DNA from: Candidatus Omnitrophota bacterium | GTDB lineage: Bacteria > Omnitrophota > Gorgyraeia > Zapsychrales > Zapsychraceae | Assembly: GCA_015233405.1 (NCBI GenBank) | Contig: JADFXT010000022.1 | Span: forward strand, 1-24,823 | Length of the DNA: 24,823 nt | Direction of reading: 5' to 3' | Shown: positions 18,332 to 24,045 of the stretch, in pieces | Position numbering within the stretch: position 1 is the stretch's first letter | Layout of the letters: each line of letters begins with the position of its first letter | Translations under genes and position numbers: made by a program | Notes under the pieces: model-generated | What the model was told of the DNA's origin: nothing | Database searches by the model: none | What the model saw: the letters and a program-made list of their open reading frames with translations, nothing else

Positions 18332-20467
18332 ATGACCATCAATTACAGTGATAAGATCGCCAAGGAATTAAACTTACTTGGCGCCCAGGTTTCTTCGACG
18401 ATCAGCCTGCTTGAAGAAGGCGGGACCGTGCCTTTTATTTCCCGTTACCGTAAAGAAGCGACGGGAAACCTAAATGAAGTTTCCATTACAAGTATTCGCG
18501 ATCGTTTAAAGCAGCTTCAAGAACTTGATAAGCGGCGCGAGGCGATCCTTACGAGCATCCAGGAGCAAGGCAAACTCACCGACGAGCTTAAAGGTAAAAT
18601 TCTTAAGGCCGAAACAATGGCGGTGTTGGAAGATATCTATTTGCCTTACCGGCCTAAACGTCGGACGCGCGCGACCGTTGCCAAGGAAAAGGGACTAGAG
18701 CCTTTGGCGCAAAAGATTTTTGAGCAGACGGGCATCGATGTAGAAAAAGAGGCAAAGGCTTACGTTGACTCGGAGAAGAAGGTCTCTTCCGTCGAGGAAG
18801 CCTTAGCCGGCGCCAGGGACATTATCGCTGAGTGGATCAATGAAAGTCAGGATGCGCGCGCTAAGCTGCGCTTGCTCTTCGAGAAACAGGCGGTCATCTA
18901 TTCTAAGGTGCTTAAAGGCAAAGACGTCGACGGTATTAAATATAAGGATTATTTTGATTGGCACGAACAGGCATCTTCCGCACCGTCGCATCGGATCTTG
19001 GCCGTGCGCCGAGGAGAAAAAGAAGGCTTTTTAAGTGTGGCCGTTTATCCGACGGAAGATGATGCTTTGCGTATTTTAGCGGAGATGTTTATTAAGGGTA
19101 AGAAAGAGGATTCCCGTCAAGTCGCTTTGGCCGCAGATGATAGTTATAAGCGTTTGTTGTCCTTGTCTTTGGAGACAGAGCTTGCCGTCCAGCTTAAGAA
19201 GCGTGCGGACAAGGAAGCGATTGAGATTTTTAAAAGTAATTTGCGTCAACTTTTGATGGCGCCGCCTTTGGGTCAGAAAAATATCCTCGCCGTTGACCCA
19301 GGCTTACGAACGGGGTGTAAGGTCGTGTGCCTGGATAAGCAGGGCAAGCTTTTGATCAACCAGACAGCGTATCTCGTCGGGTCTGACCGGCAAAAAGAGG
19401 AAGCCGCGGATTGTATTAAAACGCTTTGTAAAAAATATGAGATCGAGATCATTGCCATTGGAAACGGCACGGCCAGCCGTGAGACAGAAAGTTTTGTTAA
19501 AAGTTTGGGGCTTTCTAAAAATATCCACGTCATCGTCGTCAGTGAAAGCGGCGCGTCCGTTTATTCCGCATCCGACGTGGCCCGCGAAGAATTTCCAGAT
19601 TATGATGTCACCGTGCGCGGAGCGGTTTCTATCGGCCGGCGTTTGATGGACCCGTTGGCCGAACTCGTGAAAATAGACCCCAAGGCCATTGGGGTGGGGC
19701 AATATCAGCATGACGTAGACCAGACGTTGTTAAAGGACAGCCTCGACGATGTAGTTATTAGCTGTGTTAATCAAGTCGGTGTGGAGATCAATACCGCCAG
19801 CAAACAGCTTTTGACCTATGTTTCCGGCTTAGGTCCGTCGCGCGCCAAGGCGATCGTAGAATATCGTAATCAGAATGGACCATTTTCCTCGAGAAAAGAA
19901 TTTACCAAGGTCCCCGGTTTAGGGCCAAAGGCCATTGAGCAGGCGGCCGGGTTTTTGCGTATCAAAGATGGGAAGAATCCTTTGGACGCGAGCGCCGTCC
20001 ATCCCGAGACCTATGAGATCGTCGAGCGGATGGCCAAAGACCTGGGGATTTCGGTCGATAAATTAATTAATAGCGACGCATTGGTCAATAAAATTGACCT
20101 CAATAAATATGTGACGGCGACGATCGGCTTGCCGACGCTTATGGATATTAAAAAAGAACTCGTCAAGCCTGGCCGCGACCCGCGGCAACCGTTCGAACTG
20201 TTTAGTTTTAAGGATGGGATCGAAAAACTCGAGGATTTGAAAGAAGGGATGAAGCTTCCGGGGGTCGTCACTAACATCACTGCCTTTGGTGTTTTCGTCG
20301 ATATTGGCGTTCATAACGACGGGTTGGTGCATATCAGCGAGCTTTCCAAACGGTTTGTCAAAAACCCTCACGATATCGTCAAGGTCCATCAGAAAGTTCA
20401 GGTGACGGTATTATCCATCGACTTACAACGCAAACGCATTGCACTTAGCACAAAAGACAGCCTATAA
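18332..20467 (+). CDS. tex: Transcription accessory protein Tex (YqgF/RuvC-like, HhH and S1 domains)
   Basis: 711 aa. N-terminal HTH/Tex region, YqgF-like nuclease fold (ILAVDPGLRTGCKVV), HhH motifs (GLGPSRAKAIVEYR, VPGLGPKAIEQAAGF), and C-terminal S1 domain (GMKLPGVVTNITAFGVFVDIGVHNDGLVHISEL). Confidence 0.85.
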   Translation: MTINYSDKIAKELNLLGAQVSSTISLLEEGGTVPFISRYRKEATGNLNEVSITSIRDRLKQLQELDKRREAILTSIQEQGKLTDELKGKILKAETMAVLEDIYLPYRPKRRTRATVAKEKGLEPLAQKIFEQTGIDVEKEAKAYVDSEKKVSSVEEALAGARDIIAEWINESQDARAKLRLLFEKQAVIYSKVLKGKDVDGIKYKDYFDWHEQASSAPSHRILAVRRGEKEGFLSVAVYPTEDDALRILAEMFIKGKKEDSRQVALAADDSYKRLLSLSLETELAVQLKKRADKEAIEIFKSNLRQLLMAPPLGQKNILAVDPGLRTGCKVVCLDKQGKLLINQTAYLVGSDRQKEEAADCIKTLCKKYEIEIIAIGNGTASRETESFVKSLGLSKNIHVIVVSESGASVYSASDVAREEFPDYDVTVRGAVSIGRRLMDPLAELVKIDPKAIGVGQYQHDVDQTLLKDSLDDVVISCVNQVGVEINTASKQLLTYVSGLGPSRAKAIVEYRNQNGPFSSRKEFTKVPGLGPKAIEQAAGFLRIKDGKNPLDASAVHPETYEIVERMAKDLGISVDKLINSDALVNKIDLNKYVTATIGLPTLMDIKKELVKPGRDPRQPFELFSFKDGIEKLEDLKEGMKLPGVVTNITAFGVFVDIGVHNDGLVHISELSKRFVKNPHDIVKVHQKVQVTVLSIDLQRKRIALSTKDSL

Positions 20468-20478
20468 TCCTTGTTTTT

Positions 20479-20503
20479 TGTCATTCCCGCGAAAGCGGGA
20501 ATC
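20479..20503. repeat. Left terminal hairpin repeat of the GIY-YIG mini-element: TGTCA-TTCCCGC-GAAA-GCGGGAA-TC
   Basis: 8-bp stem, GAAA loop, preceded by TGTCA. Sits between the tex stop and the GIY-YIG RBS (TAGGAG). Confidence 0.6.
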
Positions 20504-20515
20504 TAGGAGCCTTAA

Positions 20516-20800
20516 ATGTCTTATTATGTTTACATTTTAGCCAGCCAGCGGAATGGAACATTGTACATTGGTGTAACAAAGGATTTATTAAGGCGGGTTT
20601 ATGAGCATAAGAATAATCTTGTTAAAGGTTTTACTGAAAAATACCGCATTAATTTGTTAGTTTATTTTGAAAAGTTGGATAATGTAGGAGAGGCAATAAC
20701 AAGAGAGAAACAAATCAAAAAATGGAACCGTGATTGGAAGATTGAAATGATTGAGAAAAACAATCCTCAGTGGAAAGATTTATATGAGGATTTGGTTTAA
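20516..20800 (+). CDS. Small stand-alone GIY-YIG (URI-domain, COG2827-type) nuclease
   Basis: 94 aa. YYVYILAS…GTLYIGVT…L..R..EH…E…REKQIKKWNR is the canonical GIY-YIG catalytic module with nothing else attached. Confidence 0.8.
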   Translation: MSYYVYILASQRNGTLYIGVTKDLLRRVYEHKNNLVKGFTEKYRINLLVYFEKLDNVGEAITREKQIKKWNRDWKIEMIEKNNPQWKDLYEDLV

Positions 20801-20807
20801 ATAACTG

Positions 20808-20832
20808 GATCCCCGCTTTCGCGGGGATGACA
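20808..20832. repeat. Right terminal hairpin repeat, inverted relative to the left copy: GA-TCCCCGC-TTTC-GCGGGGA-TGACA
   Basis: It is the reverse complement of the left copy except for two positions (T/C and A/G) that change in a base-pair-compensating way (ATTCCCGC/GCGGGAAT versus ATCCCCGC/GCGGGGAT). A half-copy GGGAATGACA follows at 20846-20855. Confidence 0.6.
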
Positions 20833-20968
20833 GTGAAGCTGGATGGGAATGACAAGAAAAATAGAATAAGGCCCTTTTAATCAGTTATTGTATTGACAAT
20901 GAAATTCAGACCAGCTAACATAAAAATTGTTTCATTTGTTTGTCATTCGCAATCATATATTACATCAT

Positions 20969-21046
20969 TGTCATCCCCGAATGTCTTAGTCGGGGAACCA
21001 TAGGGTTTTAATATGGATTCCCGATAAAAGATTTCGGGAATGACAG
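20969..21046. repeat. Two further copies of the same hairpin-repeat family in the dnaX upstream region
   Basis: TGTCAT-TCCCCGA-atgtcttag-TCGGGGA (20969-20996) and ATTCCCGA-taaaagat-TCGGGAAT-GACAGTGAG (21017-21050). They share the TCCCG/CGGGA stem and the flanking (A)TGACA(GTGA) with the terminal repeats. A half-copy TTGTCATTCGC sits at 20940-20950. Confidence 0.5.
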
Positions 21047-21092
21047 TGAGATGGAATGTTGTTGACAGTTGTATCAAGGGAAATTCAATATT

Positions 21093-22739
21093 ATGTCTTA
21101 TTTAGTCTTAGCGCGTAAATATCGCCCTCAAACCTTTGCCGATGTTATCGGTCAGGACCATATTACCGAGATTTTAAAGAAAGCCGTCGAGTCGAACCGG
21201 GTGGCACACGCCTATCTTTTCTGCGGGCCGAGAGGGATAGGAAAGACTTCTTGTGCGCGCATTTTGGCCAAGTCTTTAAATTGTGAAAATGGCCCGACGA
21301 ACAATCCTTGCGGCAAATGCCCGGCGTGCTTGGAAATCGCTAAAGGGACGAGCTTTGATGTCTTAGAGATCGATGGAGCGTCGAACCGCGGTATTGATGA
21401 GATCCGTTCGTTAAGGGAAAATGTTAAGTTCGCCCCCAGTTACGGTCGGTATAAAATTTATATTATTGATGAAGTCCATCAGATTACGACGGACGCGTTT
21501 AATGCGCTTTTAAAGACGCTCGAAGAGCCGCCGGAGCACGTCAAATTTATTTTTGCCACGACCTCGCCGCAAAAAGTGCCATCGACCATTATCTCGCGCT
21601 GCCAGCGGTTTGATTTTAAGTCGATTGCGATAAAAACCATCGTCGAGATGCTGGCGTCTGTGTGCAAGGAAGAAAAATTGACCATTGACCAGGAAGCCCT
21701 TTATGCCGTCGCTAAAGCCGCGCAGGGGAGTTTCCGTGATGCGTTAAGTGTTCTTGATCAATTAAGCGCTTTAAGTGATGAAGGGATCAAGGCCGACGAT
21801 GTCTATTCCATGCTCGGGCTTGTGGAAACAGACTTGATCTTTAATCTCGTCGATGCGCTGGGAGATAAAAATTGCCAGAAGGCGCTTGAGATCTTAGAGG
21901 AGATTATCACCAAAGGTAAAGACGTCCGCCAACTTGCAAAGAATTTAAACGAGCATCTTCGAAATTTGATGGTCATTAAAATCGGCGGAAAGTCTTTGGG
22001 AAAATTGGTCGACTATCCTATTGTTATTAAAGACATGTTTCTGGCGCAATGTGATAAGTTTACGTTAAAGGAAATCATCAACGCTATCGATACTCTGACC
22101 GAGGCGCAGGAATCTGCTCGTATCACGGAATCGATTCGCATGTCTCTAGAAGTCGCTTTTGCGAAATTGACCTATCAAGGGGAAACTAAAGCGCCGGCGC
22201 CGAAATTGCAGAAGCCTGAACCGGCCATTCAGATCGCTTCCGTCAAGAAGCCAATGCCTTCAGCGGGGATATTGTCGAACAATAAAGGCGAGGTGGATAT
22301 TTCTGGACGGAAAAAAGAGGTCGTGCTCGATGTTGTTGAGGAAAAAATAGAGGTCAGCGAAGAGGGTTTTTCCGGCGAAGAAACGGGGACGCTTGATTTT
22401 GACAGAATAAAACGCATGTGGGATTCTTTGACTTATGCGGTGAGCCGGAAACGAATGTCCGTCTCGACCTATTTGCAGGAGGGCAGCCCGCAAGCATTTA
22501 AAGATTTGAAACTGACAGTGATTTTTCCGCCGCATTGCCGGTTCCAGAAAGAGGCCTTGGAAGATTCTCAAAATGTCCAGATCGTTGAAGATGTTCTTTA
22601 TGAAAAATTAAAAGCAAAAGTGAGAATTGCCTATGAATTGTCTGAAGATTTTAAGTCTCCGACGGCAGAAGAGCCGGAAGTCAAAGAAATTTTAGATACT
22701 TTTAAAGGAAAAATAACAAATAAGTGGCATAATGAATAA
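21093..22739 (+). CDS. dnaX: DNA polymerase III subunits gamma/tau
   Basis: MSYLVLARKYRPQTFADVIGQ, Walker A GPRGIGKTS, zinc module CGKCPAC, DEVH, SRC-like TTSPQKVPSTIISRCQRF. ATG at 21093 preferred over the TTG at 21069. Confidence 0.9.
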   Translation: MSYLVLARKYRPQTFADVIGQDHITEILKKAVESNRVAHAYLFCGPRGIGKTSCARILAKSLNCENGPTNNPCGKCPACLEIAKGTSFDVLEIDGASNRGIDEIRSLRENVKFAPSYGRYKIYIIDEVHQITTDAFNALLKTLEEPPEHVKFIFATTSPQKVPSTIISRCQRFDFKSIAIKTIVEMLASVCKEEKLTIDQEALYAVAKAAQGSFRDALSVLDQLSALSDEGIKADDVYSMLGLVETDLIFNLVDALGDKNCQKALEILEEIITKGKDVRQLAKNLNEHLRNLMVIKIGGKSLGKLVDYPIVIKDMFLAQCDKFTLKEIINAIDTLTEAQESARITESIRMSLEVAFAKLTYQGETKAPAPKLQKPEPAIQIASVKKPMPSAGILSNNKGEVDISGRKKEVVLDVVEEKIEVSEEGFSGEETGTLDFDRIKRMWDSLTYAVSRKRMSVSTYLQEGSPQAFKDLKLTVIFPPHCRFQKEALEDSQNVQIVEDVLYEKLKAKVRIAYELSEDFKSPTAEEPEVKEILDTFKGKITNKWHNE

Positions 22740-23455: not shown

Positions 23456-24045
23456 TCGCGAGTTCTCGCTAAAGCGGGACGAGCGTCAGGAGTTAAAGGA
23501 GGCATCAACGGGATGGATAAGCGTCATTATAAGGATCGTCGTGAATATCTCATCAAAGCTGTTCATGCACGTCGGAAGAAGGTGCGTGAGATGGCTGTCG
23601 CCTATAAGGGTGGCAAATGTGAGAAATGTGGGTACGATCAATGTATTGATGCTTTAGATTTCCACCATGTTGATCCAGCTCAAAAAGACTTTAACATTTC
23701 TAGCAAAGGATATACGCGTAGCTGGGAAAGGGTTAAGGTCGAGTTGGATAAGTGCAAGATGTTATGCGCTAATTGTCACCGAGAACTTCACGCACAAAGT
23801 TAGCAGCCTCCATTAGGAATAATGGAGTGACAAGCGGGCTAAGTCAGGAAAATCCTAGACGACATCATTGGGACGACCGAAAGGAAGTCCTGAGGTAAGT
23901 TGAAGGACAATCCTGAGCTAGCAGTCGATTCGGCGTAAGCTGAAATTGATAGGCAAGTGCAGAGACTTTACACCCGCCACCCTAAGGTAATCAAATGCCT
24001 GGGTGAAGAGAAAGTCCGACTCTTCAGGTAACTGAAGTCAGATCG
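23456..24045 (+). mobile_element. Group I self-splicing intron (IC3-like core, about 243 nt at 23803..24045) with an ORF-bearing P1 loop
   Basis: The 5' exon ends …GGCUGU and the internal guide GCAGCC (23803-23808) is exactly complementary with a U·G at the splice site. A P2 hairpin CUCCAUUAGGAAUAAUGGAG follows. Core blocks CAAUCCUGAGC, GUGCAGAGACU, CCACCCUAAGG and AGAGAAAGUCC resemble (from memory) the Azoarcus tRNA-Ile and Anabaena tRNA-Leu introns. Terminal G at 24045. Confidence 0.75.
23513..23803 (+). CDS. Intron-encoded HNH homing endonuclease (96 aa)
   Basis: HNH/zinc motifs CEKCG…DFHHVDP…N…CANCH. Strong RBS AAAGGAGG (23495-23502). The stop TAG abuts the intron internal guide sequence. 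Confidence 0.75.
   Translation: MDKRHYKDRREYLIKAVHARRKKVREMAVAYKGGKCEKCGYDQCIDALDFHHVDPAQKDFNISSKGYTRSWERVKVELDKCKMLCANCHRELHAQS

Follow-up and report, generated by a model that had tools for sequence, protein, structure and literature searches.

The closest described counterpart of the locus considered here is the Ssn family, defined by Chenal and colleagues as single-domain GIY-YIG proteins (CDD cd10448) and founded on SsnA of Neisseria meningitidis, a protein of 94 amino acids (Chenal et al. 2025, Nat Commun 16:2388; PMC11893778). SsnA binds a repeat termed the NTS, CGTCATTCCCGCGMAVGCGGGAATCYRG, solely as single-stranded DNA and cuts it a few nucleotides upstream; double-stranded DNA, RNA and the complementary strand are not substrates, RNA is not bound, and only one of the two DNA strands is bound (PMC11893778). 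The mutants Y6A, Y17A and E64A are inactive. On the DNA side, the three nucleotides before the palindrome are important for cutting and the C after it for binding, the loop is dispensable, and changing the sequence of the stem with its pairing kept abolishes the activity of the N. meningitidis enzyme (PMC11893778).

Binding and cutting of single-stranded DNA beside hairpin repeats have been established biochemically for four Ssn homologues, and repeats of the wider class of Ssn-related motifs (SRM) lie near 71% of the bacterial homologues, on both sides of the gene in 42% (PMC11893778). SsnA makes N. meningitidis less transformable by DNA that carries the NTS, and the cutting of such incoming single strands is the sole Ssn role to have been tested (PMC11893778). 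The same authors raised the analogy with IS elements and REP/RAYT systems, together with a mobility hypothesis, and proposed that these enzymes could serve as a toolbox for cutting single-stranded DNA (PMC11893778).

The window, by which we mean the whole stretch of 24,823 nucleotides (24.8 kb) that was analysed, carries a small GIY-YIG gene in the spacer between tex and dnaX. An initial annotation had placed this gene between inverted hairpin repeats of about 25 nucleotides, with two more full copies and two partial copies ahead of dnaX; all of these features lie where it put them, and the flanking repeats turn out to extend to 28 nucleotides. The features of the region are as follows.

18332-20467: tex, the upstream neighbour of the ssn cassette, with Tex domains in a Pfam search
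20479-20506, plus strand: SRM/NTS copy A, TGTCATTCCCGCGAAAGCGGGAATCTAG, 11 nt past the tex stop, with its GTCAT head facing away from ssn
20505-20509, plus strand: AGGAG, a putative Shine-Dalgarno-like element 6 nt 5′ of the ATG, overlapping the tail of copy A
20516-20800 including the stop codon, plus strand: the ssn gene, for a single-domain GIY-YIG nuclease of 94 aa that belongs to the Ssn family
20805-20832, minus strand: SRM/NTS copy B, TGTCATCCCCGCGAAAGCGGGGATCCAG on the minus strand, 4 nt from the ssn stop, with its head facing away from ssn
20839-20854, minus strand: a collapsed SRM remnant, TGTCATTCCC running directly into ATCCAG, with head and tail kept and the hairpin core GCGAAAGCGGGA missing, presumably by deletion
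20941-20954, plus strand: a degenerate or collapsed SRM remnant, TGTCATTCGCAATC, of repeat family D1
20969-21001, plus strand: SRM copy E, of a 9-nt-loop subtype, TGTCAT-CCCCGA-ATGTCTTAG-TCGGGG-AACCAT
21013-21045, minus strand: SRM copy F, of the same 9-nt-loop subtype, on the minus strand TGTCAT-TCCCGA-AATCTTTTA-TCGGGA-ATCCAT
21069-22739: dnaX, the downstream neighbour, with its start probably at the ATG at 21093

The open reading frame is currently deposited under the generic name 'GIY-YIG nuclease family protein', and it is the only one in the interior of the cassette. Its product matches Pfam PF01541 (GIY-YIG) over residues 3-76 with E=2e-16; a second Pfam match, T5orf172 (E=4.6e-4), covers the same stretch and the search returned no further domain. 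At 94 residues the protein lies below the 150-aa limit of the small single-domain GIY-YIG class, and its AF2 model is one compact domain with a GIY-YIG fold (pLDDT 95), the best solved structural neighbours of which are UPF0213 and Slx1, GIY-YIG folds of about 90-100 residues. A sequence search of the PDB found no Ssn structure. Membership in UPF0213/YhbQ was considered and rejected, as similarity to EF2693 and BH0048 reaches only E=2.7e-4 and 7.9e-3; in fold the proteins do resemble each other, at a TM of about 0.58. The right end of the window was also checked for a tRNA or an integrase, a suspicion that was not borne out.

Membership in the Ssn family is defined in the original work by BLASTP to Neisseria SsnA with E <1e-10 and a query cover of at least 75%. 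For this comparison, N. meningitidis CAX49033.1 was represented by a gonococcal gene (L168:1501-1782, on a chromosome that PLSDB lists as a plasmid), which has NTS copies around it and which we take to be the SsnA orthologue from its length, its residue numbering and these NTS flanks. The window protein is 55% identical to this N. gonorrhoeae protein over 94/94 residues without gaps (E=3e-42) and so, judged against the gonococcal orthologue, falls well inside both limits. The three residues whose replacement inactivates SsnA (Y6, Y17 and E64) are found in the window protein at identical numbering and are invariant in 32 homologues.

NCBIfam holds no model for the Ssn family, and NCBIfam, PADLOC and PHROGs returned only weak matches to the GIY-YIG motif. 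From this weak profile similarity (TIGR01453 at 22 bits, phrog_5123 at E=5e-4, the PADLOC HEase model at E=4e-3) it could be argued that the gene encodes a homing endonuclease of the free-standing GIY-YIG type, with a double-stranded target in tex, dnaX or the spacer between them. We regard this as extremely improbable, since the scores lie far below the cut-offs and cover the N-terminal catalytic motif only (TIGR01453 reaches 22.1 bits against a cut-off of 56.05, over residues 5-39 only), the 94-aa protein has no C-terminal DNA-binding domain, ssn interrupts neither a gene nor an intron, and close homologues have been characterised as specific for single-stranded DNA (PMC11893778).

The repeats themselves also point to the Ssn system. 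Copy A agrees with the NTS consensus CGTCATTCCCGCGMAVGCGGGAATCYRG at 27/28 positions. Written in parts, its first 25 nucleotides (20479-20503, plus strand) read TGTCAT-TCCCGC-GAAA-GCGGGA-ATC, and copy B at 20808-20832 reads GA-TCCCCGC-TTTC-GCGGGGA-TGACA, which is the copy A unit on the minus strand. Together they form an inverted repeat (I2) with 28-nt arms that are complementary at 25/28 positions (89%). The only difference within the stem is T7/A22 in one copy versus C7/G22 in the other, positions that are paired with each other, which bears out the earlier observation that two covarying differences preserve an 8-bp stem; the third difference, T versus C at position 26, lies outside the stem. 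When folded as single-stranded DNA, copies A, B, E and F give -9.0, -12.0, -7.7 and -6.9 kcal/mol, with z values of -4.1, -6.1, -3.1 and -2.9 against shuffled sequences. The core GCGAAAGC is what we take to be a classic, very stable DNA mini-hairpin, and this stability fits recognition of the repeat as single-stranded DNA.

The published SRM motif is HGTCWYN(0-2)YYVSBRHN(0-5)WNVSBRGN(0-2)RNCYNB, and the accompanying criterion asks for at least one match within 500 bp on both sides of the gene. In the 24.8-kb window the motif has two matches, copies A and B only, where 0.03 would be expected from 200 dinucleotide shuffles, and these two, at 20479-20506 (plus strand) and 20805-20832 (minus strand), both lie within 500 bp of ssn, one on its 5′ and one on its 3′ side. 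The published motif misses copies E and F, owing to their 9-nt loop and CCCGA stem; the spacing from TCCC to GGGAATGACA is 8 nt in A and B and 13 in F. Copies E and F together form a heads-outward doublet (inverted repeat I1) with no gene between them. A scan of the remainder of the window with flexible repeat patterns revealed no SRM copy away from ssn. A lone CGGGAATGAC match at 10750, inside an ORF and without a hairpin, was treated as chance.

Hairpins of this kind would form in RNA as well, and a rival reading is that they act there, as terminators, attenuators or stabilisers of the GIY-YIG gene and its neighbours, with the nuclease being unrelated to them. Copy B scores as terminator-like on the minus strand, and copy A sits between tex and the ribosome-binding site of ssn, both of which would suit such a role. 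Several observations make it very improbable nonetheless: neither A nor B is followed by a T-run on the coding strand, a search of Rfam gave only sub-threshold noise and no family, and SsnA bound no RNA and one DNA strand only (PMC11893778). In addition, inverted copies amount to different RNA sequences within one transcript, yet the GTCAT and ATCCAG flanks are conserved on opposite strands.

The Ssn family is large, since clustering at 50% identity leaves 5,423 representatives at E<=1e-10, and homologous loci allow both the arrangement of repeats around the gene and the conservation of the hairpin to be assessed beyond the window. A scan of metagenomes for homologues gave 80 further loci, in which 76 genes have complete flanks. 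A GTCAT-anchored hairpin lies within 150 nt of the gene in 72/76 of these, so the co-occurrence of repeat and GIY-YIG gene that the initial annotation had asked about is the rule, and the repeats are not ubiquitous REP elements unrelated to such genes. The hairpin is upstream on the plus strand in 55/76 and downstream on the minus strand in 65/76, and 49/76 (64%) have both, which is the heads-outward layout of the window; the opposite orientations are rare (upstream on the minus strand in 6 and downstream on the plus strand in 9 of the 76 loci). Per kb, ssn loci carry 0.62 SRMs and a control set of 80 tex loci 0.031. The matches in the tex control loci look like chance.

The same hairpin arrangement is found within different gene neighbourhoods in another Omnitrophota genome (L001) and in an unrelated metagenome contig (L002). 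Large rhizobial and sphingomonad plasmids carry homologues, and the GIY-YIG relatives found in phage genomes are all distant (33-38%), giving no evidence for carriage by phages. Gene-less doublets recur as well, with 17 arranged heads outward versus 6 heads inward. The subtype represented by E and F is likewise not confined to the window, since a stem of ATYCCCGA/TCGGGRAT with a conserved 9-nt loop is present in two further loci (L089 and L113), in the first of which the 9-nt-loop repeat lies directly upstream of the ssn homologue.

The inference of selection on hairpin structure, which had been drawn from the two copies flanking the gene, holds across the family. For the covariation set, 84 loci were used, namely the 80 from metagenomes together with the window, L001, L002 and the gonococcal L168; they gave 79 distinct 28-mers, in which 98.3% of stem cells are paired. 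The rule for entry was at least 6/8 stem pairs, and with this allowed for, compensated cells still far outnumber unpaired ones. Double changes occur at 5/8 stem pairs in this set and number 39 cells versus 4.5 in shuffles, with 0/500 shuffles reaching 39. The swap from T-A to C-G at pair 7-22 is found in 10 distinct sequences, window copy B among them. Outside the stem, CCAG in the tail is conserved; ahead of the head the sequence varies, with only a pyrimidine at -1 in common, in agreement with the published logo (PMC11893778).

Taken together, the analysis establishes family membership, the identity of the repeats, a conserved architecture and covariation of the stem, and the locus has all those defining features of the Ssn/SRM system that could be tested. 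We therefore read it, with a probability of roughly 85%, as an Ssn-family nuclease gene with its cognate SRM/NTS hairpin repeats, as described by Chenal et al. 2025 (PMC11893778). The initial suggestion of a REP-like cluster on which the GIY-YIG protein acts, a relationship demonstrated for Ssn homologues (PMC11893778), probably applies here too, given that the locus has the attributes by which the family is defined.

By homology, the window protein itself is likely to be an active nuclease. It would recognise a 28-nt unit consisting of YGTCAT, an 8-bp stem with a 4-nt loop, and ATCYRG, solely in single-stranded DNA with the hairpin extruded, and recognition would read the sequence of the stem in addition to the asymmetric flanks, namely GTC before the palindrome and C after it. 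The enzyme would then hydrolyse the motif-bearing strand a few nucleotides 5′ of the motif and would leave double-stranded DNA, RNA and the complementary strand uncut. Because A and B have their heads outward, the predicted cuts fall just outside the cassette and on opposite strands, at around 20470-20478 on the plus strand, right after tex, and at around 20833-20842 on the minus strand. By the same reasoning, cuts would fall outside the E-F doublet too, with E and F regarded as putative substrates only. Not all copies need be equally good substrates: since SsnA activity is lost on a stem swap (PMC11893778), copy B, with its C-G variant, could be a poorer one. The biological purpose of such cutting may also differ from that in Neisseria. 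To our knowledge natural competence has not been described for Omnitrophota, so the role in limiting transformation may not transfer to this host.

How the cassette came to lie between tex and dnaX can be addressed by deep comparisons only, as the closest Tex homologue in the genome collection and the protein database is 79% identical and the search found no relative at the level of strains. The cassette is absent from all relatives found that have tex upstream of dnaX (Tex 61-79% identical). Two of these (L163/L164, Tex 79%) have a bare spacer of 124 nt with no SRM, and a more distant one (L059, Tex 61%) has a bare spacer of 103 nt. In others the spacer holds different genes, with labels read from translations: a response regulator, an epimerase-like gene and a small conserved ORF in L003 and L008, and a mechanosensitive-channel-type gene in L004 and L166/L167, preceded in L166/L167 by a GDSL-like gene. 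A further locus (L165) likewise shows no ssn, on a contig that ends within a 421-aa gene just after tex and before any dnaX. The spacer is thus not conserved together with the gene among relatives, and the absence of the cassette from every syntenic one indicates that it was gained at tex-dnaX in the lineage of the window.

A gain of this kind raises the possibility that SRM-ssn-SRM is a mobile element that is, or was until recently, autonomous, with Ssn as its mobility nuclease. E-F and similar doublets would then be its non-autonomous derivatives, in the relation that REPINs have to RAYTs. Such a reading is compatible with the identification of the gene as ssn and adds to it a claim about propagation. 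The layout is indeed IS-like, with terminal inverted repeats of 28-nt arms bracketing the gene, and homologous cassettes occur in unrelated gene contexts. The empty tex-dnaX sites in all syntenic relatives, the excess of heads-outward over heads-inward gene-less doublets (17 to 6), the presence of homologues on the large rhizobial and sphingomonad plasmids, and the many homologues on contigs of about 1 kb, which is expected where repeats break assemblies, all point the same way, and the Ssn authors raised mobility too (PMC11893778).

Against this stands a series of observations. No target-site duplication is seen by eye beside A/B or E/F, and the two ends are similar over the 28-nt SRM unit and no further. 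The recognition site is within the element and not in the empty target, unlike the situation in homing. Protein clusters at 90% identity are mostly found on 1-3 contigs only, and two paralogues on one contig (P0002 and P0005) are by eye only about 85% identical, which gives no sign of a burst of identical copies. The search found no filled and empty pair of strains, the best relative having a Tex of 79% identity, and the 24.8-kb window is elsewhere free of SRMs. No transposase or recombinase of a recognised type (DDE, HUH/Y1, serine or tyrosine) is encoded, GIY-YIG being the sole domain. GIY-YIG enzymes hydrolyse DNA and do not form a covalent intermediate, so they cannot by themselves carry out strand transfer, which also counts against mobility.

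Overall, the initial description of the unit as a minimal mobile cassette stands in so far as the cassette is lineage-specific at its site; target-site duplication, strain polymorphism and identical copies, by which movement would be recognised, were not shown. Mobility of the cassette is possible but unproven, and the reading of it as an autonomous or recently autonomous element strikes us as tentative, with the odds well against it. A still more specific proposal, and one that we consider doubtful, is that these cassettes form a still-active mobile class in which Ssn nicks outside each end on opposite strands and host replication or repair copies the unit, or SRM doublets, elsewhere, the insertion at tex-dnaX being one such event. 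If active mobility were true, Ssn would be the first GIY-YIG enzyme to drive the proliferation of bacterial repeats in a 'transposase-like' manner.

The main value of identifying the locus as an Ssn/SRM system lies in annotation, in that the gene can be named as an Ssn-family site-specific ssDNA endonuclease and the repeats as its SRM sites. The finding that the family, along with a near-canonical NTS sequence, reaches into Omnitrophota goes slightly beyond the original publication, as do the strong heads-outward preference, the 9-nt-loop subtype that escapes the published motif, the recurrent gene-less doublets and the lineage-specific gain. These side results bear on the question of how SRM repeats spread without answering it. 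The enzyme and its site are also a candidate pair for the ssDNA-cutting toolbox that the Ssn authors proposed.

It remains to place the locus among known systems. Homing endonucleases of the I-TevI type share the catalytic motif with the window protein and differ in having a C-terminal DNA-binding domain and double-stranded targets, and in being intron-borne or free-standing in phages. UPF0213/YhbQ (PDB 1ywl, 1zg2) and the Slx1 domain are the best structural matches to the window protein; however, at 26-28% identity they belong to another subfamily with no known SRM association, and Slx1 in addition requires Slx4 and cuts branched double-stranded DNA.

REP/REPIN-RAYT systems (Y1 HUH) and IS200/IS605 elements share the design of a single small gene between inverted hairpin repeats and a protein that recognises hairpins in single-stranded DNA, and the resemblance extends to gene-less inverted doublets, which are similar to REPINs, and to clusters, which are similar to BIMEs. 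In contrast to these systems, Ssn is a hydrolytic GIY-YIG nuclease and not an HUH tyrosine transposase, so that a covalent intermediate is impossible; its predicted cuts lie on opposite strands 5′ of each end instead of at both ends of one strand; and movement of SRM-ssn-SRM is a hypothesis only. As for the dRS3 repeats of Neisseria (ATTCCC-N8-GGGAAT), the core palindrome of copy A, ATTCCCGCGAAAGCGGGAAT, conforms to the definition quoted in PMC11893778, and mosaic dRS3 arrays are likewise intergenic repeat clusters of alternating orientation. That definition, however, ignores the oriented flanks, and dRS3 serves as a target for phage integration, nothing like which was seen at the window locus.

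The correspondence with the Ssn/SRM system itself (PMC11893778) is much fuller. The host here is an uncultured Omnitrophica bacterium, of a phylum that the paper does not mention; the four full repeats all adjoin the gene in the 24.8 kb seen, versus hundreds genome-wide; and E and F represent a 9-nt-loop subtype outside the published motif. The 94-aa single GIY-YIG protein, the residues Y6, Y17 and E64, the 28-nt repeat, the repeat-gene-repeat layout and the asymmetric flanks are all the same, and the locus is thus already known in kind, departing from the published system just in its host phylum and in minor variants of the repeat.

Beyond the intact hairpins that accompany the window's ssn gene, which encodes a GIY-YIG nuclease of the Ssn family, two collapsed copies of the repeat are present:

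20839-20854, minus strand, collapsed repeat copy
20941-20954, plus strand, collapsed repeat copy

The first reads TGTCATTCCC followed directly by ATCCAG, such that head and tail are intact and the hairpin core GCGAAAGCGGGA is gone, as expected from palindrome excision or from slippage across the palindrome. The two full copies further downstream belong to a recurrent hairpin subtype with the stem ATYCCCGA/TCGGGRAT and a conserved 9-nt loop, roughly A[AT][TG]YNTTT[AG], which goes undetected by the published search motif for these repeats (SRMs). It was found at the following places:

Window 20969-21045, 9-nt-loop hairpins
L089 395-439, 9-nt-loop hairpin directly 5′ of an ssn homologue (gene 450-725)
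L113 1050-1094 and 2231-2275, 9-nt-loop hairpins

In two metagenome loci (L156 and L158), ssn lies within a symmetric array instead of between a single pair of repeats. Five tandem copies upstream (plus strand) and five downstream (minus strand) recur regularly every 34 nt, except that the spacing is 39 nt for the outermost upstream copy, and the array reaches about 180 nt out from the gene in both directions. Another contig (L142) carries two ssn copies, at 862-1128 and 2383-2649, 1521 nt apart; the flanking repeats are identical at each, the copies share about 91% identity over 600 nt, and the pair looks like an older tandem duplication.

Many family members, P0247, P0243 and numerous further cluster representatives among them (5,423 protein clusters, 50% identity, E ≤ 1e-10), are annotated with 30–60 additional N-terminal residues that are translated upstream repeats (e.g., LSFPRKRESS...); the repeats have probably led to a wrong choice of start codon. 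Separately, two PLSDB “plasmids” of about 2.17 Mb (NZ_CP119140.1 and NZ_CP119142.1) are mislabelled N. gonorrhoeae chromosomes, with an ssnA orthologue and NTS copies all around (L168).

Placement of tex 5′ of dnaX-recR is kept in Omnitrophota relatives (L003, L004, L008, L059, L163-L167), and the content of the spacer is highly variable: it may be empty (103–124 nt), hold a response regulator, an epimerase-like gene and a small conserved ORF, or hold GDSL-like and MscS-type genes, these labels being assigned partly by Pfam and partly from translations. The junction seems to be a hot spot of gene gain and loss. At the right end of the window lie two ORFs, neither with a Pfam match nor with a tRNA nearby:

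23513-23803, plus strand, 96-aa Cys-rich ORF (CEKCGY...CANCHRELH), zinc-finger/HNH-like by eye
24024-24707, minus strand, 227-aa ORF

Repeat pairs without a gene between them are about three times commoner heads-outward than heads-inward (17 versus 6). The outward pairs, spaced by 7–87 nt, include:

Window 20969-21045
L085 (four places)
L153 (two)
L154, L128, L132, L146 and others

A variant hairpin, GTCAT-TCCGTG...CACGGA-ATC, also forms a heads-outward doublet upstream of tex in a Bacteroidia MAG (L044 3770-3872), a 6-kb locus with no ssn gene. The heads-outward gene-less SRM doublet is a REPIN-like arrangement, and the Ssn paper (Chenal et al. 2025, PMC11893778) does not discuss it.
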